A DNA stretch of 36,986 nucleotides from Catajapyx aquilonaris (Eukaryota): contig KZ539001.1 in NCBI GenBank assembly GCA_000934665.2, positions 1 through 36,986 on the forward strand, written 5' to 3'. Positions 3,246 to 36,986 of the stretch are shown here, piece by piece; positions within the stretch are counted from its first letter, which is position 1, and the number at the start of each line of letters is the position of its first letter. A program made the translations under genes and the position numbers. The notes beneath the pieces are model-generated. The model worked only from the letters and a program-made list of their open reading frames with translations, was not told the origin of the DNA and did no database searches.

Positions 3246-3596
3246 CACTGTAGGTGTACAGTACACCGGAGTACCGAAGTGATTACCCCCTTGTAAAACT
3301 CTGTCTTGAACCGGAACCCGCTGGTGTCTTTTGAACCGACTACGGTCACAGTATCATGTGAGATATGTATAGATACACACACTTGACCTTTCTCTCATGA
3401 TTATTTTTATATTAAACTAGGCCAACTTTAGCGTCGTCATTAAACAAAAAACTTTTGGAATGGTATTGTCACCTTTTCTGACTACCTACTTGAAATTTTT
3501 TTGCAGAATTCCAAGCTTGATTTTACAAATCAAGAAGCTGGTATGAAAAGACAGAGTGTCATTTTTTATTCGATAAGCATATTGTTAGAAACAACT

Positions 3597-3680
3597 GCTA
3601 CGTCATCAGGTCCAATGTATACTGCACGAATAATAAAGGTCCGTGCCATATAACTCGTAAGAAGTTCGTGCACTACCCGG

Positions 3681-3757
<77 letters not shown>
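3597..3757 (+). mobile_element. 5'-truncated retroposon 3' end with (ATT)n tail
   Basis: Absent from the homologous introns of ZF2/ZF5. 8-bp TSD AAACAACT (3589-3596 / 3758-3765). (ATT)n at 3681-3757. 3' end resembles the SINE tail at 8013-8082. Confidence 0.7.
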
Positions 3758-3758
<1 letters not shown>

Positions 3759-3868
3759 AACAACTTGCTCAAGCTAAAAGGAACATGCAATGAAATGGAG
3801 TCGATGCATAAGGTGGTAAAACTGTTGCTTTTTACATGACATTTCGCAAGTTCTCTCCCGGTTCTGAC

Positions 3869-4168
3869 CTGATTTTGTCTGCCTGTGTCTCCACTTCCAT
3901 TGTCTGCCTCCTCCTCCTCCTCCCTCGCTGGACCAGTGTCATTACCGATGGGGTAATCATCACTCGGCTGTATAGTGTGCACTGGAGTAAGAAATTCAAG
4001 GGGTACCACGCAGTACGTAGGGGGTACCAGCAGGGGATGCCATGTTGCACCACTAGGGAGTACCAGTGCAGGTGCACACTGGAGTACAGGAGGGGTTACC
4101 CCCTCGTCGGTCACTGTGTCCCTGTCGACAGTTGCTCTGCTCCCACCCTCCCAGGGCCTCCACATCAT
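3869..4168 (-). CDS. ZF1: N-terminal coding exon of a C2H2 zinc-finger paralogue (finger exon presumably left of window)
   Basis: MMWRPWEGG...TDEGVTPPVLQCAPALVLPSGATWHPLLVPP...DTGPAREEEEEADNGSGDTGRQNQ, homologous to the ZF2/3/5 exons. Donor CAG|GTCAGA at 3868. Intron 3400-3545 matches the ZF2 intron 12420-12567. Start codon uncertain. Confidence 0.6.
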
Positions 4169-4620
4169 CCGATCTGCTGACCTCGCGGCCACCACCGTTG
4201 ACCTCCTCTGGCTCCACCTTGACCCCTGTCCCACGCACCTGGAGGCTGGAGTGTGTGCCAGCTGGTGAAGTCTCCTGTTGATCACACCTCTTGTCGGGGG
4301 AAGTGGGCGCACCTTACAGATCTGCACTTTTGGTGATGAGATATTGAGATGTATCACTGAAGCAGAGTAGCAGACTGCATGAGTCTCGGTGCTTGCGTCG
4401 ACTGGCTGTGAAGAGTGTGAACCTGTTTCCTGTAATTCGGCTGGCCATGGGTTATAGGGCAAGACCTCTCTGCCCTCCCTCCCTCCCCCCCNCACCAAAA
4501 GAGAAAGAAAGTATCCCCCTTTTCCAAAAAACGAGACCTCCACTTCAACCGATCCGCTTATTCTCCCCCCAAACATCCGTTGCCCTCCTCGAGCATACGT
4601 GCAAGAGCCCCGCCCAAAAG

Positions 4621-4989
4621 TAGGGATGGGACAAACATCGCTTACCAGTTTAAAAAGCTGCTATTTTCAAATAGCTCTAAGCATATTGCTATTCACTTGA
4701 TCGCAATAGGCGATTTTCATATTAAGTGCTATTTATGTTTAAGTTAATGCAATTGAAGCCTTTTTTTTTGTATAAACAACACATGTCAAAAACTTGAACT
4801 TTTCAGGAGACACAAAAAAAATTCTCTGCTTTTTTTTCTACCTTGGTTTTCTCCCGCCTTCACAACACTTTTTGCGTTTCGATTGCAGCATTTAGAGCGC
4901 AAGGCTAGGAACTAAGCGGTGGTGGCCATATCTCGTTTTCGACCATTTTTGACATATGTTGTTTTTGCAAAGAGAGAGAGAGAGAGGGG

Positions 4990-6780: not shown

Positions 6781-8480
6781 TCACCATTTTTGCCATATTC
6801 GAGTCTGGCGCACCCGGTAAGGAATCCAAAAAATTGTAGCGTGTGGGGGGGCAAAGAATAAAGGACAGTCATATAACACATGGTGCAAATCAAACACTAC
6901 ATGGAGATTACAGTATTCACATATATCATCGTTGGAAAGCACCAAACACTGGGATCCTATTCTAATGTAGTTAGAGCCATTTTTAATATTTATTAAAAGT
7001 CTAGTAATCGGTAATGGTAAGGAACAAGCTAAGTATGTTGTATTGTTGGCCTCTCTCAAGAATTCGCTCCTGTAGTGTGTGTACCTAGATGTTCCCGTGA
7101 GTCTGTCCATATCCTCGCGAAGACAGCTGTCGGCCAAATCTACTAAACATTTCCCAGTATCAATGTCCTCCAGCGTAGTTAGGGTAACACCGGTTCTTGC
7201 TAATTGTTTTAAAATTAAGTCCATCCAACAGTGTCCCTTTGTTTGGTTGCTCAATGTTAATTTGCTGCGCATTAGGGCCTTGGAAAGAAGGGAGTCCCGG
7301 TCGGCTCTGTTCAGTTTAATTAAAAATCGAATGAGTGTTTAATAACTCGGATTTGTATTGGATTTACCTTGAGCTCCCGACGTAGAAAATATCCTGCCGT
7401 TGATTTCGGTAGGGCGAAAAAAAAAATCAAAAAAAGGTTAAAGACCACCTCCATTTCGTCCAGATAATTAAGCGCCCAAATCGGAGAGGCATATGAGATA
7501 TTAGGAAAGATTTTTGAGTGGAAAAGTTTATGTGCAATTTCAAGATCGCGAATTGCCAACCTTAGTAATGTAGGCCAGAGTGCTGCATGCACGGCTATTT
7601 TAGCTTTGTTGGAAAAATACTGCGCCGTTCTTCGGAAGTTGCCATTTAATACTGAAAAATACTCCCTAGTAGGCTATGTGTATTGGTTCACCTGTTCAAT
7701 TTGTACATCGTTCATTCGGAATGAGTGTTTAAAGGGTAGTGCCCTTGGCCAGGGAGATGAAGTGGCGCCGCGGTAAAGCGCGCGCCCACGGATATGAAGG
7801 TCCCGGGCTCAATCCCCACCCGGGGTTCCCACCTTTATCCGTGCAGAGTTGAGCCATCTCTGGCTTCATTTCGGGTGGAAATTTCCTAAAGACTAATCCA
7901 CCCGGAGAGTTCACAAAATGACCACTATTGAGACATTGGACTGTACCTTGCACCTCCCCTCCTACTCATCCCCCTTCGGTACCCGGGCGTTACGGCTTGT
8001 ACACCTAAAGCAAAATAATAAAGGTACCGTGCCAGATGCCCATCATGGGCGGTGCACTAACCCCAATTATTATATATATTATTAGTGCCTTTGGCCAGCT
8101 GGTGGGCACTGTAGCCCATATCAGACAGTAATTTTGAAGACATAATAGGTAGTCAAACAGGTCATTTGAAGCAACAGCTTTTGAACATGTAAGTTTCTTT
8201 ATGTGAATTGCTAATTCATCCTGTATAATTGGGGAAAGTAAACATGCATGCTCAGATGATAGACAGTCATCCACTGTAATAATAGGGTATCTAAAGGCAA
8301 CTGTGAAGGAATAATATATTTTTCAGGTAGCTCCACCAGGTCTCATCAGGCAAGCAGTTGGACAAGCGGCTGTTATTACCCTCCTTGACAATTTGCCAAA
8401 ACACCTTGTGGTCCTGAGTTGTAGTTAAACTTGGCACAAATATTATTATGTGAAGAAGAAGCATTGATATTACTCTGGGG
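6781..8480 (-). mobile_element. Decayed non-LTR retrotransposon (LINE) ORF2 remnant, RT core deleted
   Basis: Fragments QDHKVFWQIVK; IIQDELAIHIKKLTCSKA..VPTSWPKA; IEQVNQYT..LG; KLFHSKIFPNISYASPIW; C-terminal CEYC-x9-H-x4-C. Frameshifts, stops and a SINE insertion. Confidence 0.8.
7753..8082 (+). mobile_element. tRNA-derived SINE family B inserted in the LINE
   Basis: Box A-like TGGCGCCGCGG, box B-like GGCTCAATCCC, ATT/TA tail. 16-bp TSD TAGTGCC(C/T)TTGGCCAG at 7737-7752 / 8083-8098. Confidence 0.8.
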
Positions 8481-8971: not shown

Positions 8972-9380
8972 AACCGAAGCAGTAGTGGTGGAGTGCATAT
9001 GGTGTCCCACTGCTAATCGGGAGGTCCTGGGTTCGAGTCCCAGTGGCCGGCGATCCTGACCTTGGTTTTCTGTGGTTTTCCAAGGTCGCCCCAGGAAAAT
9101 TCCGGGATCGTACCGTAAAAATAGGCCACAGCCGCTTCCTTCCTTTCCCTGCCCTGGAGGAGGTGCGGTGTCAGTCGGGAGTTTCTGACCCGCATCCAAG
9201 GGTTCATCTTGGTGAACGGGCCCCCAGGTGAGAGACTGCACACGACCCCCAATTTTGAGACATTGCACATGCACCGCAGTGTCCCCCCCCCCCCTCATTA
9301 TCCATGTCCTGTCCCCTGGACTGATGGTGGTATTCCACTCCCCTAAGAGGGCCCAGGGCCCTAGCACGGGGTATAAATAA
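8972..9380 (+). mobile_element. tRNA-derived SINE family A, copy 2 (longest)
   Basis: ACCGAAGC head, box B GGTTCGAGTCC, 3' CTAGCACGGGGTAT. 17-bp TSD AAAATATAATATTGGTT (8955-8971 / 9381-9397). Confidence 0.88.
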
Positions 9381-11051: not shown

Positions 11052-11128
11052 GATGATTTGTATTTAGATAACTGGACTATAGTGTAGGCCTACTGTACAT
11101 TTTTTGAATGAGATATTAAACTCCGAAA

Positions 11129-12048
11129 TCACTTCTCTTTTGTGTGCTGTTTTCTCTCGTGATATTTCAAACCTGCTGAGTGAGCAAACCTTTTACTGCA
11201 AACCTAGCAACTAAATGGCTTCTCCCCTGTGTGAGTTCTCATGTGTCTATTCAAATGCCCTGAACGAGTAAAGTTCTTCTTGCAAACCTGGCAACTGAAT
11301 GGCTTCTCCCCTGTGTGAACCCTCATATGTAGAGTCAAATATCTTGAAACGCTAAACTTTTTCTTGCAAACCTGGCAACTGAATGGCTTCTCTCCTGTGT
11401 GCGTTTTCATGTGGGTATGCAAATTTCCTAACTGTCTAAAGTTCTTCTTGCAAACCTGGCAACTGAATGGCTTCTCCCCTGTGTGAATCCTCATATGGTC
11501 ATTCCGATCTCCTGAATATCTAAACTTTTTCGTGCAAACCTGGCAACTGAATGGCATCTCCCCTGTGTGAACCCTCATATGTATATTGAAAGCGTTTGAC
11601 CTTTAAACTTTTTCGTGCAAACCTGACAACTGAATGGCTCATCCCCTGTGTGAACCCTCATATGTACATTCAAAGAGTTTGACCATCTAAACTTTTTCGT
11701 GCAAACCTGGCAGCTGAATGACTTCTCTCTTGTATGAACCATCATAATATGTTTGTTCAAAATATCTAATCGACTAAACTTTATCTTGCAAACCTCGCAA
11801 CTGAAATATGCCACGTTTCCTGTGTTGGTCGTCGTGTGTTTATTCGAAGATGATGGGTGACTAAACTTACTACTGGAAACCTGGCAGTTGAATGGCTTGT
11901 CGTTGGAATGAATTCTCATGTGACTCTTCAACTCATTCCAAGAACTAAATGTCATCTTGCAAATTTGACAACCATTCTCCCCCAAGTTTCTCCCTCTGTC
12001 CATGTCTTGCTGGATTCCATTCTTCGAGTTCTCTTCAGCACCTTCTCC
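11129..12048 (-). pseudogene. ZF2: terminal exon with 10 C2H2 units, disrupted by a 1-bp deletion and a nonsense codon
   Basis: Acceptor TTTCAG|GGAGAA at 12049; TGEKPF linkers. Frameshift at 11601/11602 (AAA-GG versus AGA TGG in the neighbouring finger). CAG>TAG at 11204-11206 in the last finger. Original TGA at 11129-11131. Unit 2 is degenerate (CQVSS..HTTTN). Confidence 0.85.
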
Positions 12049-12690
12049 CTGAAATTGGTAAGAGCAACCTAATTACGTACATTCGTGATATTAAGGCAGG
12101 TTAATTAAGGGAGAATGCCGGAGCAATTTTTGTGACGGAGTGAGCCAAGGAACGTTATTGTGGCTTTGCCAAGCGCCAACCTAAGCTGCTGCAAGGGCAG
12201 CAAACAAAGCCACTGACAGGGAACTGGTTAACCTATAACGATATGATTAGGTACTAACAAGTGTTTATATTCTTAAACCAGCAGTAAGCATAACAATCAT
12301 GCGCCGCAACAAATCGGAATGTGCAGAGACAAAGGGGCAAACATACTCAAAGCGATTATTCTGCCTGCGCAGTTGTGGTAGCACAATTAGGCTACTGATA
12401 AATACTTACGGGGAGCTATAATTTTTTTAAAAATTGAACTAGGTCATCTGTATCATCGCCATTAAACAAAAACGTTTGGAATGTTATTGTCACCTTTTCT
12501 GAAAACTCGAAAAAAAAATGTATTGCAGAATTCCTAGCTTGATTTTACAAATCAAGAAACTGGTATCTATTATTAGAAACAACTTGAGCTAAAATGAACA
12601 TGCAATGAAATGGAGTCGATGCATAAGCTGGTAAAACTGCTACTTTTTACACGAATTTTTGCATGTGAAGATGTGCACTCTGGTTCTCAC

Positions 12691-12804
12691 CTGGTTTTGC
12701 CTGGCTGTGTCTCCACTTTCATCATCTGCCTCCTCATCCTCCTCCTCCTCCTCCTCCTCCCTGGCTGGACCAGTGTCGTTACCGAGGGGGTAACCACCAC
12801 TCGG
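12691..12804 (-). CDS. ZF2 putative mini-exon 3 (acidic, 38 aa)
   Basis: TTTACAG| acceptor, CAG|GTGAGA donor, phase 0-0; PSGGYPLGNDTGPAREEE...TARQNQ. Confidence 0.55.
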
Positions 12805-12882
12805 CTGTAAAGTGTAAAACTGCTGGTTTTTACCCCACTTTTGGCATGTGAACAGCCATGTCAATATAATGCTGCTCCTCAC

Positions 12883-12978
12883 CTGGTCTTGCATGTCTGT
12901 GTCTCCACTTCCATCGTCTGCCTCCTCATCCCTAGATGGACCAGTATCTTTACCGACGAGGGGGTAATCATCACTCGC
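12883..12978 (-). CDS. ZF2 putative mini-exon 2 (32 aa)
   Basis: TTTACAG| acceptor, CAG|GTGAGG donor, 96 nt; ASDDYPLVGKDTGPSRDEEADDGSGDTDMQDQ. Confidence 0.55.
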
Positions 12979-13067
12979 CTGTAAAGTGTAAAACCGCTGG
13001 TTGTTATACCACTTTTGGCATGCGAACAGTCGGGTCAAAATAATGTTGCCTCCTGGCTGCCTCTCAC

Positions 13068-13316
13068 CTGGTTTTGACTGCCTGTGTCTCCACTTCCATC
13101 GTCTGCCTCCTCCTCCTCCTCCTCCCATTCTGGACCAGTGTCATTACCGAGGCGGTAATCATCACTCGGCTGTAAAGTGTGCACTGGGGTTACACATTCC
13201 AGGGGTACCAGGCAGTACGTAGGGGGTACCAGGGGATGCCATGTTGCACCACTAGGGAGTACCAGTGCCGGTGTAAGCTGATGAAGGACAGGAGGGGTGA
13301 CCCCCTCGTCGGTCAT
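13068..13316 (-). CDS. ZF2 first coding exon (83 aa)
   Basis: ATG at 13316 (MTDEGVTPP...), in-frame TAG upstream at 13377-13379, donor CAG|GTGAGA at 13067. Confidence 0.6.
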
Positions 13317-14212
13317 TCCGTTCCTGTCCAGAGTTGCTCTGCTCCTATTCCCCCACTTCAACCAGTCTGCTGACCTCTAGGGCACCCCCTCGTCTTCTTC
13401 CCAAACATCCGTTGTCCTCCTCTGGCTCCGCCTCGACCTCTTCCCCACCTGGACTGTGTGGTGTGTGCCAGAAACGTGCAGATGAAGCTTCTTGTTGATT
13501 AACTCTTCTCCGAGCAGTGGTCGCACCTTACACTGGCTGACCCTCTAGATATGCACTTTTTGTGATGCCTGCTTCGACTGGGCCCTTTACCTCTTCCGTC
13601 TTCCGTTTTCCGGTGGTGATAGGGATACCGCGGGCTGGGCAAAGCCCCTCCCTCCCTCCTTTCCACCTCCAAAAAAAGAGAATAAGGTAGGCCTGTCCCC
13701 CATTTTCCAAAAGCCGGCTCCACATTACTTTTACAACTGGATTCCCCTCTATGGGGCTTTTAAAAAATGACGATAATTCGTCGCATAAATATTTAGGACG
13801 CTTTTGGCGCAAAATGTGCGTCGGTGCATGCGAATATGCGTCGGTTGGGTCTACTGCCTTCTTCCCTGGGTTGGGCGGGAAATTCCTGTGTGCCAAGAAT
13901 AAAACGGGAAAAAGCTCCAAGGCAGGTGGAAGGGGAAGAATAAGTAGTCTAATACACGCCCTCTCCGTGCCCTTTCTTCCGTGCTGTTGTCAGATGTAGT
14001 CTGTATGCCTGGGGAAATAATTATTGTGCATTTTATGTGATACCAACATGCCGCTTTGCACGATTGTTGTATACACCTTACTAGTTGATTTAAGCGTGGG
14101 AGTCACTCGGGATTGAACCTGGTTTAACCTGGACGGGCGTTCAAAGTTGGCCAAGTTAAAAGACTGTTTTGGCCATAAAGCGGGTACAAATCGACCTATT
14201 TCGACAGTTTCG

Positions 14213-17919: not shown

Positions 17920-18171
17920 CATTATTATCATACCCCGTGCTAGAGCCTTTGGCTCCATTAGGGGGGTGGACCACCATTGGATGGGACCAGGGATAGGGAA
18001 GGAAGGAAGTTGCTGTGGCCTATTTTTACGGAAACGACCTCGGAATTGTCCTGGAGGGGACCATGGAAAACCACAGAAAACCATGGTCAGGGTCGCCGGC
18101 CCCGGGATTCGAACCCAGGACCTCCCGATTAGCAGGCGGGCTCCTTATCCCCTACACCAACCTGCTTCGGT
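17816..18171 (-). mobile_element. tRNA-derived SINE family A, copy 3, with expanded (ATA)n/(ATC)n tail
   Basis: Reverse complement of the family A head and CTAGCACGGGGTAT end. TSD TTTATGCAGTATTGT (17801-17815 / 18172-18186). Shorter internally than copy 2. Confidence 0.88.
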
Positions 18172-18213
18172 TTTATGCAGTATTGTGTGTTGTGTATAAT
18201 AATACTTCGATAC

Positions 18214-18930: not shown

Positions 18931-19890
18931 GTGGGTGGGAGTGACCAGACCTTACTTATATGACCGTGGCTCAGGCAAATTTTCTTAAACGCCACGTGGT
19001 GGAGAGAAAATGAATTAAGGGACGAAGGAGCTAATTCCTGGTCACGAATACTTATTCATATGAATGACAAAGGTGAGAAAAAGATGGCGACTCTGCAAGA
19101 ATTATTTTTATTAATATATTCTGGAATTGCTTTTGGTCGGGGCGAGGTGTACGCCTCACATGATGTTGCAAAAAGACTGGTTGGGCGTGGTTTAATTAAA
19201 TGGTATGAGTAAGAATACTACACTTACGTATTATTACTTGACACTTGTCCAAGTTGACAGAGATTAGCGATCGTAACATCCTAGAAGAAAATAATAATCA
19301 CCAAGTCTCTAGAAGACGTGTCTATTTTTTGCGAGAGCTTAAAATTTGCTTTAATGCTTTGGTCTGTTGGTATCTTGATTTCTACCTAAACGGATATTGC
19401 ATAATATTCATTACACAGGCTCTAGAGGTGAAAAGTTTACAAAACAGTTTCAAGCAAACATAACATTGCACAAATAATCAAGTCCTTGTATTACTGGGAA
19501 ACGCAGACCTTTCCGTGTACTTAGCTATACTGGACAGGTTATGACTGTTAAGTGTACATAACAGTTCGTAAAAGATCGTGTGAATATACTTTGCTGATTC
19601 ACTATTCCAAAATATCTCTTGTAATCGGAAATATAAATTACACTTATACATCATATTTCGACATTATGGCCCATTTAGCACTGCTGTATTTTGTGCATAA
19701 ATTGCCTTATTCCTCAGACATAGCCATAGACACCCAGTTTCTAAGCCTTACCCAAGATCCAGGAAGTTATCTTCTCATGCAGCTTTGTCTGACTGGGAAT
19801 CTGGACATTTTCCCAGTCACCCATGGGTCGGTAGAATCAATATTTCGGGGGGTTATGCCGTCTAATCATAATGTTTGAGGAAATGGCCCT

Positions 19891-20910
19891 GCCGAGCTAT
19901 GTGACGGTTTTGTTTCCTTCTTCCTGTGGCTCTCCGGAAATATGCCTTGCTGATCAAAAATCCATGGCAGTTCATTCGCACCATTAATAATTCTTTGTTT
20001 CATGTGACAGAGTACATTTCTGTGTATGTGCGGTACATTTATGTAGATCTATAAAAATGCCCCCAACGCAACGTATAGTATTGTAAAAAAAACTGAATTG
20101 ACAATTGTGGGGGTTATCTAGGTACCTACTATACAAGAGAAAATGGGATTAATAATTAGTTACTGTCCAGTGAAGGCACCACTGAACATGAAGTCACAGA
20201 TGCACAATTTTAATCCACATAACATGTTGAGTACAAATATCATGATTAAATGTCAAAAACAACTCACAGTTAAAATATTAAAATAAATTGAAAATTTTAT
20301 TCAAATCACTTAGTCTTCCGAGTGCAAGAAAGTACGAGTAATACATGCGTTTCTAGTGCGGATCAGATATTTTTACAGTACCCTGTCAATCTCCCATACT
20401 ATCAGCTACACAATGTATTGTGCAGATCCAATACCAGACTACACCCACTACAGTCAGTTAATCATTCAACATGTTATTGCTCAACCCTCAACTCCTTGCG
20501 TATTTTTTATTTCCCTTCCCCACATCTTACAGAGTTACAGCACTCTCCACATCCTGCCACATATTATGAACTACTCCGCAAGAATAGTGCACACTACGTT
20601 CTTTACGTCTAAACTGTTCTGTATAAACGTAAAAGGTCATAATCTATTTTGCCCATAATGCAATATTATTTCAAATATTAGCCAGCAAGATATTCGACCA
20701 GTGGCAGGATTGGGTCATGTTGTGTTACCGAGTTACTAGATGAGTATCCGTGAGTATCATTGTACCCACTGCACCTGTCATGGTCTGTTAAGATAACTTG
20801 ACTAATGTAAATGGGGTTTAAAACATCGGAATCACTTCTTTCTTGTGTGGATTTTCTCATGCGTTTTCAAACCTCCCGAGTGAGCAAACATTTTAGTGCA
20901 AATATGGCAA
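19891..20910. repeat. Segmental duplicate of 27143-28155 (last finger + ~0.95 kb 3' flank of ZF3 and ZF4)
   Basis: Long near-identical stretches, e.g. GAACATGAAGTCACAGATGCACAA...CACATAACATGTTGAGTACAAATATCA. A more diverged version lies near 9600-9870. Confidence 0.9.
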
Positions 20911-21407
20911 CGGAAACGCTTTTCCCCTGTGTGAACCCTCATATGTACATTCAAACATCTTGAAGAGCCAAACTTTTTCTTACAAACCTGGCAACTGAAT
21001 GGCTTCTCTTCTGTGTGAGTTATCATGTGGGTATTCAAATTTCCTAACTGTCTAAAGTTCTTCTTGCAAACCTGGCAACTGAATGGCTTCTCTCCTGTGT
21101 GAACCCTCATATGTATATTCAAACATTTTGAGTAGCTAAACCTTTTCGTGCAAACCTGGCAACTGAATGGCTTCTCTCCTGTGTGAGTTATCATGTGGGT
21201 ATTCAAATTTCCTAACCGTCTAAAGTTCCACTTGCAAACCTGGCAGCTGAATGGCTTGTCTGCGGAATGGACTCTCATGTGACTCTTCAACCCATTCCAA
21301 GAACTAAATGTCCTCTTGCATATTTGACAACCATTCCTCTCCAAGGGTTTCCCTTTGTCCATGTCTTGCTGGATTCCATTCTTGTTGTTCTTTTCAGCAC
21401 CTTCTCC
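20832..21407 (-). CDS. ZF3 terminal exon, six intact C2H2 fingers
   Basis: Acceptor TTTCAG|GGAGAA at 21408; open frame with 6 CxxC-x12-HxxxH units and TGEKPF-type linkers; TGA at 20832. Confidence 0.9.
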   Translation of the reverse strand, partial: GEGAEKNNKNGIQQDMDKGKPLERNGCQICKRTFSSWNGLKSHMRVHSADKPFSCQVCKWNFRRLGNLNTHMITHTGEKPFSCQVCTKRFSYSKCLNIHMRVHTGEKPFSCQVCKKNFRQLGNLNTHMITHTEEKPFSCQVCKKKFGSSRCLNVHMRVHTGEKRFRCHICTKMFAHSGGLKTHEKIHTRKK

Positions 21408-21600: not shown

Positions 21601-22041
21601 AAATAGGCTAATACTATCGCGAGTAATATCGTGTAAAGGTATTTTTGAGTCATAAATTGATATATTTTTTGTACATGGGTTGGACAAAATAATGGGGATC
21701 CTTGTGAAAAGCGATTGAAAGTTCGCGTCGGTTTTATTCGAAAACTGTGAATGTTACAAAGGCATCTTTTAGGGAGTTTTGAAGCTCTGCCGACGAACAT
21801 TTGTCAAGGTATGCAGATGGCGAAAAAATGATGAGATGAAGGGGGAAACCGAAGTCAAACGACACCTTCTCATCCACAATTTTCGACCGGTGTCCCACCC
21901 TATTCATTTGAAAAAGAAAAGAGTTGCAGATATGAACATTACTGTGTTTTTAAGGTCTATCAATGTCACTTTGTGGGGTATACAGATGGCCCAAAAAGGT
22001 ACGAGAGAGGGTGAGGAAAATAGAGCACTAAATCTGACAAG

Positions 22042-23156
22042 CAAAGTAACTTTTCTTACCCTCGTGGATTTTGATAATTTTTATAAATTAAATTCTGCTT
22101 GGCCTGTAGTGTTGGGAAAACATCACCTCAGCTGCTAAATTCCACGTTAGCAGGGTGAACTAAAGGCGATGTTCCGTAAGCCACAACACCAGCGTTCGGT
22201 CGCGAGGCGCTTTCCAGGCTGCCCGGTCACGCTCGTCCCGGCTGCCCGGTCGCGGTCGGATTTCACCGCGTCTGCAGCTCTCTCCGGTGCCACTAAGGAG
22301 AAGGGTCATCTCGCACGCTTTGCAGTCGAAGGCGATTATAATAATGGAGAGCCAGGACAGGGGGCATAATACTACATAAGAGGCGCAAACATTCGATTCG
22401 CCTGTCTCTGTTTGATGGGGCCAACCATGGGGTCAACATTGGGCCAACGGTGGCGGCCATTTTGAAGAGATGCCAACGAGGTGTAAATAGGGTACAGGCA
22501 GGCCAAAGCTTCGCCATCTTTGATTGTTTTGGCGGCGGCCATGGCACTTCACGGCAAGAACACGGGCGAATTTGAATATTTTTGCCGTACTTACGGAATT
22601 AATACGTAGAAAAGTGCATTAAATTAGCTCATACGGCAAAAAGATTCAAATTCAGCCGCCAAAACCATCAAAGATGGCAGACCTTTGGCCTTCCTGTACC
22701 CTATATTTACACCTCGTTGGCCTCTCTTCAAAATGGCCGCCACCGTTGGCCCCATCAAACAGAGACAGGCGAATCGAATGTTTGCGCCTCTTATGTAGTA
22801 TTGTGCCCCCTGTCCTGGCTCTCCATTATTATAATCGCCTTCGACTGCAAAGCGTGCGAAATGACCCTTCTCCTTAGTGGCACCGGAGAGAGCTGCAGAC
22901 GCGGTGAAAGCCGACCGCGACCGGGCAGCCGGGACGAGCGTGACCGGGCCGGGACGAGCGTGACCGGGCAGCCTGGAAAGCGCCTCGCGACCGAACGCTG
23001 GTGTTGTGGCTTACGGAACATCGCCTTTAGGCTGGATTTTCACCCTGCTAACGTGGAATTTAGCAGCTGAGGTGATGTTTTCCCAACACTACAGGCCAAG
23101 CAGAATTTAATTTATAAAAATTATCAAAATCCACGAGGGTAAGAAAAGTTACTTTG
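22042..23156. mobile_element. 1.1-kb foldback element (two ~530-550-bp inverted arms, 42-bp spacer) in ZF3 intron
   Basis: 22042-22589 versus 22632-23156 are reverse complements with few substitutions and small indels. Terminus CAAAGTAAC; no clear TSD. Confidence 0.9.
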
Positions 23157-23709
23157 TTTGTGAGACAGCTACAGACTGTTTAAAACTTGAATGTGTCCAC
23201 TACAAGAAGGATTTGTTGGGCTGTATTGAAGGCAAAGGTGGTCAAATATCATAGTAATTAAGAAATTGTAGTGTACACTAACAACTAACAAGTGTATTTC
23301 CATTATCCGACCCATACCACACAGGTATATGTATAGAACTTCAGTACCCAGTAAAGTAAATATCTTTAACTGCTTTCGTTTGCAAATGAAAAGGGAGGGG
23401 TACTTTTCGAAAATGGCAGGTGGGGGGTGTCATTCGAATTTTGTTTACGCCCCTCCTCTTGTGACCTTTGAAAAATCCCCATACCTAGACGAATGTACAT
23501 CGACAGAGCTTCAAAACTCAGTGAAAGTCATATAGTATGTAACTTTTCCAATGCCAAATTATGAATAAAACAGACACGAAACTTTCAACCTCCTTTAGCA
23601 GGTGTCCCTATTATTTTGTCCAACCTCTGTTAGGCTCAAACGCCGAAAACGCTCATTGAGCGAAAAAGCGACAATTTCGCGAAATGGTCCCTTTCAAACC
23701 TCTCATAGA

Positions 23710-24300: not shown

Positions 24301-24523
24301 TTGACAAAAATTGGGTTGCATAATATTGTGTTCTCCTCGCACAAATTGCGAAACTTGAAGGCAGTTGCGTTGCGGGGAATGAAGAACAAGAGTATCTATT
24401 TTGCAGAAAATTTATTTAAAGGTTCACCAGTCAATGCACAACCTTTGACACCTACTTCCTTTTAATCTGACAAATTTCATTTTTTATCCCCGCTCCACCC
24501 TAATATCCAATGCTGCTTCTCAC

Positions 24524-24619
24524 CTGGTTTTGCCTGGCTGTGTCTCCAATTCCATCGTCTGCCTCCTCTTCCCTGGATGGACCAGTATCATTACCGACGA
24601 GGGGGTAATCATCACTCGC
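24524..24619 (-). CDS. ZF3 putative mini-exon 2 (32 aa)
   Basis: TTTACAG| acceptor, CAG|GTGAGA donor, 96 nt; preceded by a 78-nt GT-AG spacer. Confidence 0.6.
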
Positions 24620-24697
24620 CTGTAAAGTGTAAAACCGCTGGTTGTTACACCACTTTTGGCATGTGAACAGTCGGGTCAAAATAATGCTGCTTCTCAC

Positions 24698-24952
24698 CTG
24701 GTTTTGCCTGGCTGTGGCTCCACTTCCATCGTCTGCCTCCTCCTCCCAGGTTGGACCAGTGTCATTACCGAGGGGGTAATCAACACTCGGCTGTAAAGTG
24801 TGCACTGGGGTTACGCATGCAAGGGGTACCAGGCAGTACGTAGGGGGTACCAGGGGATGCCATGTTGCACCACTAGGGAGTACCAGTGCCGGTGTAAGCT
24901 GATGAAGCACAGGAGGGGTGACCCCCTCGTCGGTCATTCCGTTCCTGTCCAT
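24698..24952 (-). CDS. ZF3 first coding exon
   Basis: ATG at 24952 (MDRNGMTDEGV...) or 24937; upstream in-frame TAG; donor CAG|GTGAGA at 24697. Confidence 0.65.
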
Positions 24953-25615
24953 AGTTGCTCTGCTCCTATTCCCCCACTTCAACCAGTCTGCTGACCTCTA
25001 TGGCACCCCCTCGTCTTCTTCCCAAACATCCGTTGTCCTCCTCTGGCTCCGCCTTGACCTCTATCCACCTGGACTGTGTGCCAGCACTGCAGATGAAGCT
25101 CCTCGTTGATTAAACTCTTCTCCGAGCAGTGGGTGCACCTCACATGTCTATAGATCTGCACTTTTGGGGGTGAGATGTGTCACTAGACTGCTTGAGTGCT
25201 TGAATGCTTGGACCTTGGTTCGACTGGCCGTCATGGCGGGGCAGGTCATGGCGTGGGCAAAACCACTCCCTCCCTCCTGCCCACCTCCCCCCCAAAAGAG
25301 AAAGGCACGTGGTGTCTGGAGGCTTATTTTCGTGCAACCGAGCGGCTCGGCTAACCGAACGATGACGTTAACCGAGGGGAGGGGGCGTGGCAACGAGATC
25401 GGTGGAAACTGGAAAGGTTCTCGTTCGTATCGTATGCTTCGGCAACATCGCCTAGACCGAGTCCTTTTGAGCCGAGGGGCCCCGATTTGGGATAATACGA
25501 ACGAGGAATCGGCTAAGGACCAATCACCGGTGGGATGATGCGCGCGCCACTTATTAGTGGAGAGTTGGGAGTATGTTACACTCCGCTCAAATTTCAAACA
25601 AGGCCGCCATCTCTA

Positions 25616-25925
25616 AAGGCCACCCCGCAGCCCTTTCGCTATTTAATTCTCCCGTTAATTAACCCGCGATTATTTAAGACGAATACGCACATCCCCGGTA
25701 TCGTCGGAACCTCCCCTCAACCACGAGGGCATTGTCACGCCCGGGAGACCCCGGGTTTGGCCGAAAGTACTATGAAAAGGTCACCCCGCAGCCCTTTCGC
25801 TACTTAATTATTCCGTTAATTAACCCGCTATTATTTAAGACGAATACGCACATCCCCGGAATCGTCGGAACCTCCCCTCGATGACGAGGGCACTGTCACA
25901 CCCGGGAGACCCCGGGTTTGGCCGA
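25616..25925. repeat. Tandem duplication, ~161-bp period, two copies
   Basis: AAGG(C/T)CACCCCGCAGCCCTTTCGCTA...GGGAGACCCCGGGTTTGGCCGA at 25616 and 25777. Confidence 0.9.
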
Positions 25926-26556: not shown

Positions 26557-28073
26557 AAATGTGTGATGAATGCTATCACATAACATACGAATATTTCATT
26601 ACCTGCGATGTATAGGCTATGGCGCTATGCTCTAATAATAGTATGTGCAAAAATGGGAAAACTACTCATCAATTCTGGATGTCACTGTCATTACCATATT
26701 TCTTGTGTCTCCATATTTTCCCTGGAGTCGCAGGTTTTTAAAATTAATTTAAAGTGACTTCTGATCACGACCAATAATTACTTTTACTAGTAATGTACAG
26801 TACTACCCTAATGCAAAATATGGAGAGTGATCACCACTTGTACTGTAATTATTACACCACGCAACACGACTTTGTCAATGGAATTTTGTCGCTATTTCCA
26901 TGTCCCTTAGGTCACTCGTAACCAACAATGACCATTAATTTTGTATGGCTTTGGTTTTTTTGACATTGGGGCAGTAAAAAAAACAAAATGTCCGAAATAT
27001 AGGGGTCTTTCCGAATCAAGTGGGCAGAAATATTGCCAAGGGATTGGGCAGGCCACGGGGTAGCAGATAAGGAGGGTCAGTCCTAATCTACACACCTCGG
27101 GCTTGTAGCATTTGGGGAACCGGACCTTCTAAAATAATTTTTGCTGAGCTCTGTGATGGTTTTGTTTCCTTCTTCCTGTGGCTCTCCTGAAATATGCCTT
27201 GCTGATCAAAAATCCATGGCAGTTTATTCGTGCACCATTAATTCTTTATTTCATGTGACAGAGTACATTTCTGTGTATGTACTGTACATTTACGTAGACC
27301 TATAAACTGACTGTAAATACCCCCAAAATAGAATATTGTAGAAAGCTGAATTAACCATTGTGGGGGTTTATCAATAGGCACAAAAGAAAGGGGGATTAAT
27401 ATAGTGTCCAATAAAGGCAGACACAACCGTGAACATGAAGTCACAGATGCACAATAATTTTAATCCACATAACATGTTGAGTACAAATATCATTATTAAA
27501 TGTCAAAAACAACTCGCAGTTAAAATATTAAAATAAATTGAAAATATTATTCAAATCACTTAGGTTTCCCAGTGCAAGAAAGTAATACTTGCGTTTCTAG
27601 TGGGGATCATATATTTTTACAGTGCCCAGTGAATCTCCCATACTATCCGCTACACAATGTATTGTGCAGATCCAATACCAGACTATAGTCAGTTGGTCAT
27701 TCAACATTCTTGCTCAACCCTCAACTTCTTGCGTATTTTTTTATTTCCCTTCCCCACATGTTACAGAGTTACACCACTCTCCACATCCTGCCACATATTA
27801 TCAACCACTCCGCAAGAGTAGTGCCTACTACTTTCTTTACATCTAAACTGCTCTGCATAAACTTAAAAAGCCGTACCTATTTTGCCCACAATACAATATT
27901 AGTTAGAATATTAGGCAGCAAGATATTCGACCAGTGGCAGGATTGGGTCATGTTGTGTTACCCAGTTACTGTATGAGTATCATTCTACTTATTGTACCCG
28001 ACAAGGCATGACTGTTAAGATAGCTTGACTAATGTACACAGCATCTCTGTGAATGGGGTCTAAAACACCGAAA

Positions 28074-28364
28074 TCACGTCTTTCTTGTGTGTATTTTTTC
28101 ATGCTTTTTCAAACCTCCCGAGTGAGCAAACATTTTATTGCAAATATGGCAACTGAATGGTTTCTGTTGTGTGTGTAATAACTTCTCTGCTGTGCGGGTC
28201 CTCGAGTCTGTAGTCAGAGGGTAATGAATTCTCACGTGACTCATAAACTCATTCCAGGAACTAAATGACCTATTGCAAATCTGGCAAGCATGTCCCCAGA
28301 GTTCAATCCCTATGTCTATGGCCTCCTGGATTCGATTCATCATGCTCCTTTCAGCGCATTCGGC
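28074..28364 (-). CDS. ZF4 terminal exon, two C2H2 fingers (first-type and last-type of the family array)
   Basis: Acceptor TTTCAG|GCCGAA at 28365, phase 0; CQICNRSFSSWNEFMSHVRIH and CHICNKMFAHSGGLKKHEKIH. Confidence 0.8.
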   Translation of the reverse strand, partial: AECAERSMMNRIQEAIDIGIELWGHACQICNRSFSSWNEFMSHVRIHYPLTTDSRTRTAEKLLHTQQKPFSCHICNKMFAHSGGLKKHEKIHTRKT

Positions 28365-28845
28365 CTGAAATGAGGAAAAAGGGGCTGATTAAATTTACGA
28401 TGTAAATGCAGGTTTATTGAAGGGATAATGTTGGGACTAGGTATGCTTGCCATGCAATAACTATCATTACTAGCACAAGGCGTGGGTCAACGAACGTTAT
28501 TGTGGCTTTGCCAAGAGCCAAGATCAGATGGTGTAATGCGCAGAATTCAGTTTCTTAATGGCCCCAACAAATAATAACTAAGTGAGTTGATGCAAATGGG
28601 AAGATTCGGACATTTCACACTGGGTTTGTGGGTGTGAACCCCCCCCCCCCNNNNNNNNNNNCCCCCCCCTTCCTTTCCCTTTCTTTTCCCCCCCCCCCCC
28701 CCCCCCCGACTTGGTCCAATACAATTTTTGGCACCAAAACGGGATGCCGGAGAAGATCCTTCAAGTCTGCTGAAACTTTGGCATTTTACTCTTGGCACCA
28801 GAGTTTATCATAATTTATGTGAACATGTACAATCTGCTATCTCAC

Positions 28846-29253
28846 CTGGTTTTGCCTGCCTGTGTCTCCACTTCCACCGTCCTCTCCATCCTCCCTGGCT
28901 GGACCAGTATCAGCCTCTTGCGTCCCTTTGCCCTCTTCCTCCTCTTCCGCTGCACCGGTGTGATCACCTTCCTGGCTGCAGTTGCCCTCTTCCTCTTCCT
29001 CCTCCTCCTCCTCCTCCTCCTCCCTTGGCTCCTCCTTGACCTTCAGACCCCATCTAAATCCTTCCCAACCTATCTTGTCCATCTCCTCCTTGGTGAAGGT
29101 GATTGTGGCCCTCACCTCCTGTTCCTCCTCCTCTGGCTCCACCTTGACCCTGTCCCATTTGGAGTGGGTGGTGCTGTGTACAAACAGGTCCATCTTCCTG
29201 GTGAACACCTTGTCTGGGCAGCAGGGGCACTGGAATCTGCCCAATTTCATCAT
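28846..29253 (-). CDS. ZF4 first coding exon: solitary C2H2-like finger + KVEPEE/KEEP motifs + poly-Glu
   Basis: MMKLGRFQCPCCPDKVFTRKMDLFVHSTTH..VKVEPEEE..DTGPAREDGEDGGSGDTGRQNQ. Donor CAG|GTGAGA at 28845; predicted spliced product 232 aa. Confidence 0.8.
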
Positions 29254-30179
29254 GTTGCTCTCTGGGGGATGGGTCTCTCCTCTGTCCGCTGTTCACTCAA
29301 CTGCTGTACCACCCTGGAACTGGAGACCCTAATAAGACGAGTCCAATGTGGTTCTCCTTCATGCCCAACCCCAAACCAGACCATCGCGCATCTCACTGCA
29401 AGATGGTGGACCCTTGCCCAGAGACTCCATACCTGAACTTGGCGGTGGTGAACTCTCTCACTGAATGAGGGACAGAGGCATAATGTCCAACTCTCCAGAC
29501 TGGCGACTGCCCGTGCCCCCCTCAACGCACCATGAGGGAGACCCCGAAAAAATCTTCTCCCCCACTCCACCTCCTCCTTCGCACAGAGAAGTGGAATTTT
29601 CTGAAAACTCGGCAACGAGGCTTCAGGCAGGAAAGAGGTCTGGTGGGGCCTGGCCTCCCCAATGCTATTATCAGCTGATTATCAGTTCTATTATTGTCTA
29701 TGATCCAGCCAGGTATATGCTTGGTTCTTGTCTTACCCCCCTTCCAATATATTGCAAGCGATGGGTAATGCTCTTTATCTTTCTTTCTTAATGAGTAATT
29801 ACAGTAATTAATATTCAATGCATTCTTTGTAGTTGGAATTTCCAGTACCTACATCGCACTGGCATTTGGGGCTGATCGCAAATTACAGAAAGTTGATAAT
29901 TTTATGACAAAAGGTAATCAACAAAGGTGAGGTATGCACAACAAAGAAAGAAAGAATTTGAAAAGTATAGTCGCAGCAACAACGGAAGTTCCAGGGGCGA
30001 GGTTAGATAACGGCCACAACATGGGGGGAGGGGGGGGGGGAACTCCCGTTGATAACGTGGAAGTAGAAACACCACTGGAGCTTTATATCAGTGGGACATT
30101 ATAATCGAATTTCCATTAGCTTGACTGAAAGTGCAAAATATCATAACCATTTACTTCAGAATTTAGGTACTGTACCTCA

Positions 30180-31600
30180 TTAGGTGCCTTGAATTTTTGA
30201 GTCCAGTGGTCCAAATCGCATTGCATCATTTGCAAGATGTATCAGGGAATGCTCATTGTACGCCAGCATTTCAGGAGAATACAATATTTTACAAAGCCCG
30301 ACAAATTTTTTGAGTAAAGTCCCAGCATACCGGCACATCTGCATATCTAATTTCGGCTGTGCAAGTATGTATATCGATACTGATTGCAGCAGAAAGTGCC
30401 GATACAAATGTGCTGGCAACACTGAAAGTAAAACCCACATACAACAGCATCCATCGATCCACAAAATAATTTCAAGGTCCTTTGTCTTCGTCCAAAATCA
30501 CTTGGAATGAATTGCACCATACTTTCAAGCAACTGTGACAAAGTTGTACTTGCTGCAGCACACAGCATCCGCACTTGCAATTCCCCCCTCAACCAGGTTT
30601 TCATTAGTCGCCTCATCACCCCCAATAGAATGATATGCATATAATCTTGACTTCTAGAGGGAATTGCGTCAAGGGAGATATTTTATCATGATGTTATTCA
30701 TTTTTCTGACATTGATGAGCCAGAAAACTTTAGTCCGTTGGCAACTGTGCATGTAAATTGCTAAATATCGTACGTCCAAGAGACGAACCCTCAACATTAC
30801 ATTTTTCACACCCAAACCAACTATTGTGAGATTTAATTCCCTTAATAAAGGCACGCGCTGGTGCATCACACACAAAGAAGCACTTAGTGACATAATTATG
30901 GTACGTATGTGACAGTTCCTACAGATACCGCATTTGCAATTAAGTTACCTTCATCTCAGTCACAAACTCTTCCAAGTATTCATATTTTATATTCTGCGGT
31001 TTGCTGTACACACAATAACCCCATGCCACAAAAGGAGTAATACTTTTGGATTCATTTACGATATACACGACCGTATATAGGCCAGAATTGTGTATTTGAA
31101 CTTTTTGATATGGGAATGCCATGTATATTTATGCTTAAAGACAATTCAGTTTTGTGCTGGTCAATTACTCTCCTTTTGATAGCACAAATAATCCCATAAG
31201 TGATACCCAAATAAAATGATTTTCCACCAGCAACGAGCCTGACTTCTGAATCAGAAATGACTGAATAAGGACAACGCATCAGTGTTCGTGGATCTTTGGG
31301 CAAATCATTCGCCTGGCCATGTATTCTCAATACTCTCAGTAAATCTCTCTGAGAAGTCACTGTCACTTTATGCTTCACAAACAGCTGCTGATGAAGATCA
31401 GTTGCAAGTGCAAGCTCCACATTTGTTGCAGGCTATTTGAAAATTGTTTGGCTGCCACACCATCTATATCTGCATGACTGTTATGTTCACTAGTTCCACT
31501 TTCTGACATGACACTGACCTGATCCTCTTGCTCACTTTCACAACTCCTGTCACTTGTGAACTGAATTGCATTTCTGGTGCTGACTGCATCATTGGAATTA
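30180..31600 (-). mobile_element. Decayed CACTA/EnSpm-like (CMC) transposase
   Basis: Ordered motifs LPKDPRTLM; LSINIHGIPISKSSNTQFWPI; SKP..YLEEFVTE; FVCDAPARAFIK..CEKC; YMHIILLGVMRRL..W; IPSDFGR; YNEHSLIHLANDAMRFGPLD. Several frameshifts. Confidence 0.85.
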
Positions 31601-35112: not shown

Positions 35113-35592
35113 TCACTTTATCTCTTGTGTGTGTGTTCTCTCGTGGTATTTCAAACTTGCTATGGTAACAAACATTTTACTGCATATGTAGCAACGATGT
35201 GTTCTCATGTGTGAATTGAAATTTAGTATCCTACTAAATTTCTTCTGGCAAACCTGGCAGCTGAATGGCTTCTCTCCTGTATGAACCATCATATGTTTGT
35301 TCAAAATATCTAATCGACTAAACTTTGTCTTGCAAACCTCGCAACTGAAATATGTCATGTTTCCTGTGTTGGTCGTCGTGTGTTTATTCGAAGATGATGG
35401 GTGACTAAACTTTCTACTGGAAACCTGGCAGTTGAATGGCTTGTCGTTGGAATGAATTCTCATGTGACTCTTCAACTCATTCCAAGAACTAAATGTCATC
35501 TTGCAAATTTGACAACCATTCCCCTCCGAGTGTCTCCCTTTGTCCATGTCTTGCTGGATTCCATTCTTCGAGTTCTCTTCAGCACCTTCTCC
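35113..35592 (-). CDS. ZF5 terminal exon, four intact + one degenerate C2H2 unit
   Basis: Acceptor TTTCAG|GGAGAA at 35593; open to TGA at 35113; first three units near-identical to ZF2. Confidence 0.85.
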   Translation of the reverse strand, partial: GEGAEENSKNGIQQDMDKGRHSEGNGCQICKMTFSSWNELKSHMRIHSNDKPFNCQVSSRKFSHPSSSNKHTTTNTGNMTYFSCEVCKTKFSRLDILNKHMMVHTGEKPFSCQVCQKKFSRILNFNSHMRTHRCYICSKMFVTIASLKYHERTHTQEIK

Positions 35593-36172
35593 CTGAAATT
35601 GGTAAGAGCGACCTAATTAAATTCGTGATATTAAGGCGGGCTTAATTAAGGGAGAATGTTGGGGCTATTTTTGCGACGGAGTGAGCCAAGGAACGTTATT
35701 GTGGCTTTGCCAAGCGCCAACCTAAGCTGCTGGCCCTAACAAGTGTTTATATTCTTAAACCAGCAGTAAGCATAACAATCATGCACCGCAACAAATCGGA
35801 ATGTGCAGAGACAAACGGGCAAACATACTCAAAGCGATTATTCTGCCTGCCCAATTGTGGTAGCACAATATATTAGGCTACTGATAAATACTTACGGGGA
35901 GCTATAATTTTTTTAAATTGAACTAGTCCATCTGTACCATCGCCATTAAACAAAAACGTTTGGAATGTTATTGTCACCTTTTCTGAAAACTCGAAAAAAA
36001 TGTATTGCAGAATTCCTAGCTTGATTTTACAAATCAAGAAACTGATATCTATTATTAGAAACAACTTGAGCTAAAATGAACATGCAATGAAATGGAGTCG
36101 ATGCATAAGCTGGTAAAACTGCTGCTTTTTACACGAATTTTTGCATGTGAAGATGTGCACTCTGGTTCTCAC

Positions 36173-36289
36173 CTGGTTTTGCCTGGCTGTGTCTCCACTT
36201 TCATCGTCTGCCTCCTCATCCTCCTCCTCCTCCTCCTCCTCCTCCCTGGCTTGACCAGTGTCGTTACCGAGGGGGTAACCACCACTCGG
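36173..36289 (-). CDS. ZF5 putative mini-exon 3 (39 aa)
   Basis: TTTACAG| ... CAG|GTGAGA, 117 nt. Confidence 0.6.
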
Positions 36290-36367
36290 CTGTAAAGTGT
36301 AAAACTGCTGCTTTTTACCCCACTTTTGGCATGTGAACAGCCATGTCAATATAATGCTGCTCCTCAC

Positions 36368-36463
36368 CTGGTTTTGCAGGTCTGTGTCTCCACTTCCATC
36401 GTCTGCCTCCTCTTCCCTGGATGGACCAGTATCATTATCAACGAGGGGGTAATCATCATTCGG
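36368..36463 (-). CDS. ZF5 putative mini-exon 2 (32 aa)
   Basis: TTTACAG| ... CAG|GTGAGG, 96 nt; 78-nt spacers on both sides. Confidence 0.6.
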
Positions 36464-36541
36464 CTGTAAAGTGTAAAACTGCTGGTTGTCACACCACTTT
36501 TGGTATATGAGCAGTCGGGTCAAAATAATGCTGCTTCTCAC

Positions 36542-36877
36542 CTGGTTTTGCCTGGCTGTGTCTCCACTTCCATCGTCTGCCTCCTCCTCCTCCCTGGCTG
36601 GACCAGTGTCATTACCACTCGGCTGCATAGTGTACACTGGGGTTACACATTCAAGGGGTACCAGGCAGTACATAGGGGGTACCAGGGGATGCCATGTTGC
36701 ACCACAAGGAAGTACCAGTGCAGATCCACACTGGAGAACAGGAGGGGTTGCCCCCTCGTTGGTCATTCCGTTCCTGCCTTCCTGGCCAGGAGTTGCTCTG
36801 CTGCTATTCTCCCAGGGCCTCCACTTCACTCGATCTGCTGACCTCGAGGACACCACCTCGTCTTCTCCCCCAAACAT
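36542..36877 (-). CDS. ZF5 first coding exon (start uncertain; frame open to window edge)
   Basis: ATGs at 36877 and 36766 (MTNEGATPPVLQC...); donor CAG|GTGAGA at 36541. Confidence 0.6.
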
Positions 36878-36986
36878 CCTTTGCTCTCCACCTTGCCCTC
36901 CCCCTTGACCTCTGTTCCACCTGGGGTGTGTGCCAGCATCAGATGAACCTTCCTGTTGATGACCCAGTCGGTGCAGTGGGCGCACC

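Follow-up and report, generated by a model that had tools for sequence, protein, structure and literature searches.

Can a tandem duplication across an exon-intron boundary give rise to new exons, and may this have happened in a cluster of zinc-finger genes? The question is raised by a 36,986-nucleotide stretch of DNA from Catajapyx aquilonaris (assembly GCA_000934665.2, contig KZ539001.1; hereafter the window), which contains five related C2H2 zinc-finger loci (ZF1 to ZF5), all on the minus strand, together with microsatellites and tRNA-derived repeats, as is usual for animal DNA. Among the latter, a short repeat is present in three copies (1827-2012, 8972-9160 and 17987-18172; 84-86% identical); its head matches the tRNA model (Rfam RF00005, 1833-1904, 33.5 bits), the sole Rfam match, and the repeat is probably a tRNA-derived SINE.

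The zinc-finger loci and their gene models

Tandem C2H2 fingers with H/C links are present, which places these loci among the C2H2 zinc-finger genes. The finger exon of ZF3 matched the Pfam families PF00096 (E=7.9e-32, six stretches) and PF13465 (E=7e-39), and that of ZF5 matched PF00096 (E=1.2e-18). When the ZF3 finger exon was compared with a protein database, the 120 matches listed comprised generic C2H2 proteins only, at 34-56% identity; its closest relatives among them were 40-56% identical and mostly teleost proteins. Given that the best relatives are just 40-56% identical, the protein collection searched seems not to include the proteins of this species itself. The gene models of the loci (ATG, donor and acceptor) were inferred as follows.

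13068-13316, minus strand: putative first coding exon of ZF2, from the ATG at 13316-13314 to donor a; 83 codons open
13068-13169, minus strand: acidic cassette a of ZF2, within the putative first coding exon
AG ending at 13170, minus strand: original exonic ACTTTACAG of ZF2, within the putative first coding exon
12049-12690, minus strand: main intron of ZF2; its first 60 nt (GTGAG...GTTTTAC) supplied the intron-derived portion of the spacers
11100-12048, minus strand: C2H2 finger exon of ZF2, acceptor TTTCAG/GGAGAAGG; one frameshift and one in-frame stop
20832-21407, minus strand: finger exon of ZF3; open, with C2H2 fingers
35113-35592, minus strand: finger exon of ZF5; open frame, with a C2H2 match
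28846-29292, minus strand: exon 1 of ZF4, with a single cassette
3869-3967, minus strand: single cassette of ZF1, donor CAG/GTCAG

An ATG (MTDEG...) starts the frame that leads to the donor in ZF2, ZF3 and ZF5, and a GTG is found in ZF1. This frame from start to donor is kept in all four paralogs, with in-frame indels only; from the ATG to donor a there are three non-microsatellite indels (3, 3 and 15 nt), each a multiple of 3. The finger array of ZF2 (11100-12048) carries a frameshift after ...CQVCTKKFK and an in-frame stop between ...EKPFSC and VCSKRF, and ZF2 is therefore probably a pseudogene, unless these lesions are sequence errors. Downstream of the ZF1 cassette, no finger exon was found within the window. 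The ZF1 locus (3566-4660) contains a 364-codon minus-strand open frame, which takes in both the donor and an (ATT)n microsatellite, along with several long frames on the opposite strand; since this region is stop-poor in many frames, open frames there are weak coding evidence.

Exon 1 of ZF4 is longer than, and different from, that of the other paralogs and bears an N-terminal finger-like motif. The sequence that it has in common with them is confined to the last ~65 nt of the exon, 8 nt of the intron and a patch of 32-54 nt within 29126-29178. In ZF2 and ZF3, the ZF4-type patch is out of frame with the cassette, with stops before the patch. Because the ancestral N-terminal part, as kept in ZF4, is frame-broken in these two loci, their exon 1 region may be untranslated. 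Protein searches returned no match for the 304-aa read-through of ZF5 exon 1 at E<=0.001 (2277 candidates of 167-532 aa and 588 candidates of 30-166 aa), and 0 matches for ZF4 exon 1 (151 aa) among 1.84 billion protein representatives. Two neighbouring open reading frames (30183-31432 and 6784-7673) matched no Pfam family.

These observations bear on an explanation in which the arrays described below have no protein consequence. The lineage of ZF1, ZF2, ZF3 and ZF5 would have lost a functional exon 1 when the ZF4-like N-terminal part was replaced and frameshifted, so that the cassettes would now belong to a pseudogene or to 5' untranslated sequence, with translation starting in the finger exon. 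The lesions in the ZF2 fingers, the lack of a finger exon for ZF1 in the window, the ZF4-like remnants that are out of the cassette frame or blocked by stops, the pN/pS values of 0.5-1.0 (finger exon included) and the failure of the protein searches to find a homologue of exon 1 are all in keeping with such neutral decay. It is opposed by the MTDEG frame kept to the donor in four of four paralogs with in-frame indels only, by the open finger exons of ZF3 and ZF5 with their strong C2H2 matches, and by the fact that every candidate mini-exon is open in frame 0. We consider this explanation unlikely.

A repeated unit that straddles the exon 1/intron 1 boundary

The repeat unit measures 174 bp and, on the minus strand, consists of ~100 nt from the end of exon 1, the CAG/GTGAG donor and the first ~69 nt of the intron. 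Alignment of 250 nt around all ten donors yielded one copy in ZF1 and ZF4, two in ZF3 and three in ZF2 and ZF5, in agreement with the copy numbers across this boundary given in the initial annotation. Tandem Repeats Finder (TRF) recovered period-174 arrays at 12750-13116 (2.1 copies, 81% matches, score 471) and at 36235-36616 (2.2 copies, 84% matches, score 549). The copies are thus head-to-tail direct duplications inside one gene, with the unduplicated state in relatives, as is characteristic of introns or exons gained through tandem genomic duplication. Listed below are the parts of the arrays.

12979-13067, minus strand: spacer a of ZF2, 89 nt, GTGAG...TTTACAG
12883-12978, minus strand: candidate mini-exon b of ZF2, 96 nt, phase 0-0
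12805-12882, minus strand: spacer b of ZF2, 78 nt, frame 0 free of stops
12691-12804, minus strand: candidate mini-exon c of ZF2, 114 nt; ends at the ancestral donor position
24524-24790, minus strand: array of ZF3, with cassette a (24698-24790), spacer a (24620-24697, 78 nt) and mini-exon b (24524-24619)
36173-36622, minus strand: array of ZF5, with cassette a (36542-36622), spacer a (36464-36541), mini-exon b (36368-36463), spacer b (36290-36367) and mini-exon c (36173-36289)

The last exon base at the donors lies at 13068, 12883 and 12691 in ZF2, at 24698 and 24524 in ZF3, at 36542, 36368 and 36173 in ZF5, at 28846 in ZF4 and at 3869 in ZF1, where the donor reads CAG/GTCAG. The first base 3' of TTTACAG was found at 12978, 12804, 24619, 36463 and 36289, and the five donor-acceptor pairs proposed earlier (13068/12978, 12883/12804, 24698/24619, 36542/36463 and 36368/36289) proved exact. 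All five junctions read TTTTACACTTTACAG, which occurs five times on the minus strand (first base 36478, 36304, 24634, 12993 and 12819) and is absent from the plus strand; ACCAGGTGAG occurs nine times on the minus strand and likewise never on the plus strand.

The candidate mini-exons measure 96, 114, 96, 96 and 117 nt, all multiples of 3, in phase 0-0 and open in frame 0. Four of the five spacers are 78 nt long and free of stops in frame 0, with two stops and one stop in frames 1 and 2; spacer a of ZF2 is 89 nt long owing to an 11-nt insertion and contains an in-frame stop. The anatomy is accordingly as the initial annotation described it: phase 0-0 segments of 96-117 nt, four stop-free spacers of 78 nt and one of 89 nt, a donor in each copy and an acceptor-like sequence at each junction. 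Its proposal that all isoforms are frame-compatible is borne out, by lengths and open frames, for ZF3 and ZF5. The longer spacer had also been taken as a sign of intron status, an argument that loses its force given that the ZF2 fingers carry a frameshift and a stop as well and ZF2 is probably a pseudogene.

Within a gene, divergence between units amounts to 10-14% for the exon part and 13-19% for the spacer, and the arrays are for this reason not an assembly artefact of identical repeats. Runs of N are located at 932-1072 (141), 4492 (1), 24040 (1) and 28651-28661 (11), none of them inside the arrays.

How the acceptor-like junction may have formed was examined from three contexts. At the original site, the exon reads ...GTGCAC/ACTTTACAG; the ancestral intron, which follows unit c and is also seen in ZF1, reads ...GTTTTAC/CAGCTT; and both ZF2 junctions read ...GTTTTACACTTTACAG. 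Comparison of these contexts showed that, at the junction, intron ...GTTTTAC is joined to exon ACTTTACAG, with AC as a 2-nt microhomology. So reconstructed, the acceptor-like site is a chimera, with its T-rich part from the intron start and its CAG from former coding sequence. The alignments further showed a history in which a segment straddling the boundary of exon 1 and intron 1 was tandemly duplicated twice in the common ancestor of ZF2, ZF3 and ZF5, and every extra copy received an intact CAG/GTGAG donor by inheritance.

Two other origins were weighed. The initial annotation had regarded the TTTACAG acceptor as derived from a transposable element. Apart from itself, the segment with the original TTTACAG (13170-13415) matched only the other three paralogs in a self-comparison of the window, and the acceptor-bearing segment matched no Pfam family and nothing in the protein-database searches. 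The acceptor sequence is thus neither a copy of a dispersed repeat in the window nor a match to an element family in these searches, and a transposable-element origin is not supported. The same annotation stated that the motif is coding as HTLQ in exon 1; this applies to ZF2a and ZF3a, but ZF5a encodes YTMQ (TATGCAG) and ZF1 HTIQ (TATACAG).

The second possibility is classical whole-exon duplication, in which the first TTTACAG was already a true acceptor fed by a conserved donor, GAG/GTCAGCAGA, ~190-220 nt upstream, so that cassette a would be internal and the units would be exon duplicates of the ordinary sort. As an acceptor, the exonic TTTACAG does rank at the 94th percentile in ZF2a and ZF3a, GAGGTCAGCAGA is invariant in four of four paralogs, and the junction would be in phase 0 in the ZF4-like frame. 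The frames ending at the upstream donor, however, lack an ATG in all four paralogs, and the motifs of ZF5a and ZF1 are weaker at the acceptor position (88th and 87th percentile). Moreover, the unit starts just 9-10 nt 5' of the AG, so that a native pyrimidine tract and branch point fall outside the copied stretch; the upstream pyrimidine tract comes from the intron start, and no native internal exon with its own acceptor region lies in the unit. We regard whole-exon duplication as highly improbable.

One old array, inherited and reshuffled

The units group by position (a, b and c) across paralogs and not by gene. Within a position class, exon parts are 2-9% and spacers 1-10% apart; between classes, the corresponding values are 4-14% and 10-19%. 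This grouping makes both rounds of duplication older than the divergence of ZF2, ZF3 and ZF5 from one another. Beyond donor b, ZF3 retains 15 nt of a/b-type spacer before the sequence becomes unrelated, and of the family intron only ~54 nt adjoining the finger exon are left in an intron of 3.1 kb. Given that the sequence breaks off 15 nt into spacer b and most of the family intron is gone, unit c was lost secondarily in ZF3, through a rearrangement at that point in the spacer. The ZF3 intron also contains a large inverted-repeat, foldback-like element (21678-23625), with a self-complementary core at 22033-23165 (84% over ~1.2 kb) and flanks at 21678-21976 and 23317-23625 that form an inverted pair (70%); its presence goes together with the loss of unit c and most of the family intron. 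Upstream of ZF3, TRF reported a further tandem repeat (25615-25925; period 161, 1.9 copies, 92% matches).

ZF2 differs from ZF5 at 48/488 sites 5' of spacer b and at 24/916 from spacer b on (Fisher P=1.7e-8). In a comparison of ZF2 (12254-13560) with 24502-25165 and 35736-36986, ZF3 is the nearest paralog for the 5' part, upstream of the units (2.4% divergence), and ZF5 the nearest (1-3.5%) for the 3' part, which extends from spacer b across the intron and into the finger exon, a pattern that points to ZF2 being a mosaic formed by recombination or gene conversion between paralogs. Between ZF2 and ZF5, spacer b shows 1 difference and mini-exon b shows 9; this seemingly greater conservation of the spacer can be traced to a recombination breakpoint near the border of exon and spacer b. 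Elsewhere in the cluster, ~1 kb 3' of the finger exons of ZF3 and ZF4 (19890-20915 and 27142-28157) is 83% identical, which indicates that the segmental duplication unit of the cluster reaches well past the genes.

Together, these comparisons showed that a three-unit array was passed on by gene duplication, reshuffled by recombination or gene conversion between paralogs and truncated in ZF3. The series of one, two and three units is, on the evidence of this grouping, one old array modified by inheritance, loss and recombination and not the outcome of repeated tuning. The suggestion that the number of cassettes per protein is tunable is thus replaced by a single inherited old triplication, from which ZF3 lost unit c.

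Splice signals and the fate of the spacers

All eight donors of the arrays read CAG/GTGAG. Acceptors were scored with a crude weight matrix and ranked against the 4231 AGs of the window. On this crude matrix, the five junction acceptors scored 1.73-3.75 (94th-98th percentile) and the finger-exon acceptors 3.06-3.95 (97th-98th percentile; n=3, with that of ZF4 left out); the other AGs inside the spacers all scored below -6. The copies had previously been said to carry a good acceptor, and on the crude score the junction acceptors do equal the finger-exon acceptors of the family, which makes splicing at the junctions plausible.

The last 16 nt of the spacers are invariant in all five, and 16 of the other 62 columns are variable; for the invariant acceptor block, P=0.021 for a pre-named 15-mer and P=0.35, scan-corrected and no longer significant, for any invariant run of at least 15. 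The exonic counterpart of the acceptor motif varies (TTTACAG, TATGCAG and TATACAG). A strict yUnAy branch point is present in four of the five spacers, only at -45 from the acceptor, and spacer a of ZF2 has none. The spacer length of 78 nt lies within the vertebrate short-intron class, human introns having a threshold of 65 nt and a peak at 85 nt (PMC4463651).

The reading that we prefer, at a probability of about 0.45 and hence somewhat short of even odds, is exon birth as a whole: tandem duplication, removal of the 78-nt spacers by splicing and inclusion of the segments as exons. In ZF5, with three units, and ZF3, with two, the 78-nt spacers would be removed as short introns and the 96-117-nt segments would then be included as phase 0-0 exons. 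Each included exon would add an acidic cassette (...DTGPxxEEEADDGSGDTxxQNQ) N-terminal to the fingers; ZF2 shares this anatomy, yet it is probably a pseudogene.

Exon and spacer cannot be distinguished by their substitution patterns. Mini-exon b bears no mark of purifying selection (pN/pS 0.90-1.60), and since the finger exon itself has a pN/pS of 0.79-0.96, these tests are without power. Exon parts and spacers have diverged equally (Fisher P=0.46, 1.0 and 1.0), and the differences in the spacers comprise 0 synonymous versus 5 and 1 non-synonymous changes.

The junction acceptors might instead be ignored, with only the last donor (c in ZF5, b in ZF3) pairing with the acceptor of the finger exon. 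The array would then be one exon, and each 78-nt spacer would be translated as a 26-residue insert (VRSSIILT...FYTLQ). That four of five spacers have a length of 78 nt and an open frame 0, with the other two frames closed, fits this reading, as does the ZF5 frame, which is open over all three units. Among competing equal donors, the one closest to the acceptor is often preferred, which would again favour the last donor. The acceptor-like junctions, however, score on a par with real acceptors, and where a good acceptor follows a donor at a distance of 78 nt, the two should normally pair. Spacer a of ZF2 tolerates an 11-nt insertion and a stop, although ZF2 is broken elsewhere too, and the spacers show no synonymous bias (0 versus 5 and 1 non-synonymous). 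Translation through the spacers thus seems to us quite unlikely.

Conversely, the first donor alone might be used and be joined directly to the finger exon, leaving the extra units as intronic relics that do not affect the mRNA. Such a silent duplication would leave the ancestral mRNA unchanged and should therefore be the easiest to fix neutrally; the equal rates of divergence of mini-exons and spacers and the pN/pS of about 1 for mini-exon b agree with it. Against it, the donors (8/8) and junction acceptors (5/5) are intact despite a divergence of 10-19% between units. Strong decoy splice sites within introns are usually recognised, which also counts against intronic relics that escape splicing. 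We judge this outcome very unlikely.

Exon birth can also be read in a stronger form, which takes the paralog series as exon birth in steps, with the junction acceptor kept by selection and the array acting as a modular, alternatively spliced acidic effector region; this form we hold to be possible but doubtful. One microhomology-mediated event across the 5' splice junction would have produced both a new 78-nt intron and a phase 0-0 exon. Selection would have kept the chimeric acceptor invariant (identical in 5/5) while the coding motif drifted, and a second round would have added the third cassette. As skipping, inclusion and retention would all keep the frame, the array could serve as a modular effector region of a fast-evolving zinc-finger family.

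The mechanism is of a known kind, namely intron or exon gain by tandem genomic duplication, for which the present locus is a candidate. Gao and Lynch (PNAS, 2009) reportedly catalogued internal gene duplications and described those with both exon and intron parts as a common source of new introns; the duplicate here likewise comprises both. As in intron gain by tandem duplication (PMC3443670), an intragenic duplication supplies the splice signals in one step; in the 'imprecise' form of this process, latent sites in the duplicate add coding nucleotides, as is proposed here (PMC3443670). The classical model involves duplication of an exonic AGGT and leaves the coding sequence unchanged, whereas here an exon-intron boundary that already existed lies inside the unit, the copies inherit a complete donor, and a new exon would arise along with a new intron.

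The potato RdRp gene PGSC0003DMG402000361 (Ma, Lan & Niu 2016, PMC4974935) offers a close parallel, in that a single splice junction lies within the duplicated stretch, the parental structure provides one of the splice sites and most signals, and the other site comes from former exonic sequence. In potato, it is the intron-exon (3') boundary that was duplicated, and a cryptic donor in the exon was recruited; the present locus is its mirror image, with the exon-intron (5') boundary duplicated, an exonic CAG as the acceptor and the pyrimidine tract from the intron start. The potato intron is confirmed in transcripts, whereas the present one is a candidate; unlike in the potato case, the duplication occurred twice here and was then copied with the gene. 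A single-step origin by segmental duplication is also a feature of the functional ATP2A1 intron of vertebrates, whose gain has been reproduced by experiment in vivo (Hellsten et al. 2011, PMC3265369).

Few young cases have been proven in which the sequence that gave rise to a new intron or exon is still legible (PMC4974935). If the junction acceptors are unused, the arrays would represent ordinary neutral tandem duplication in a decaying gene cluster. If they are used, the cluster would provide a clean 5'-boundary example of a readable intron and exon origin, in which one-unit (ZF1 and ZF4), two-unit (ZF3) and three-unit (ZF2 and ZF5) states adjoin each other, and exon birth, if true, would illustrate the modular growth of zinc-finger effector regions.
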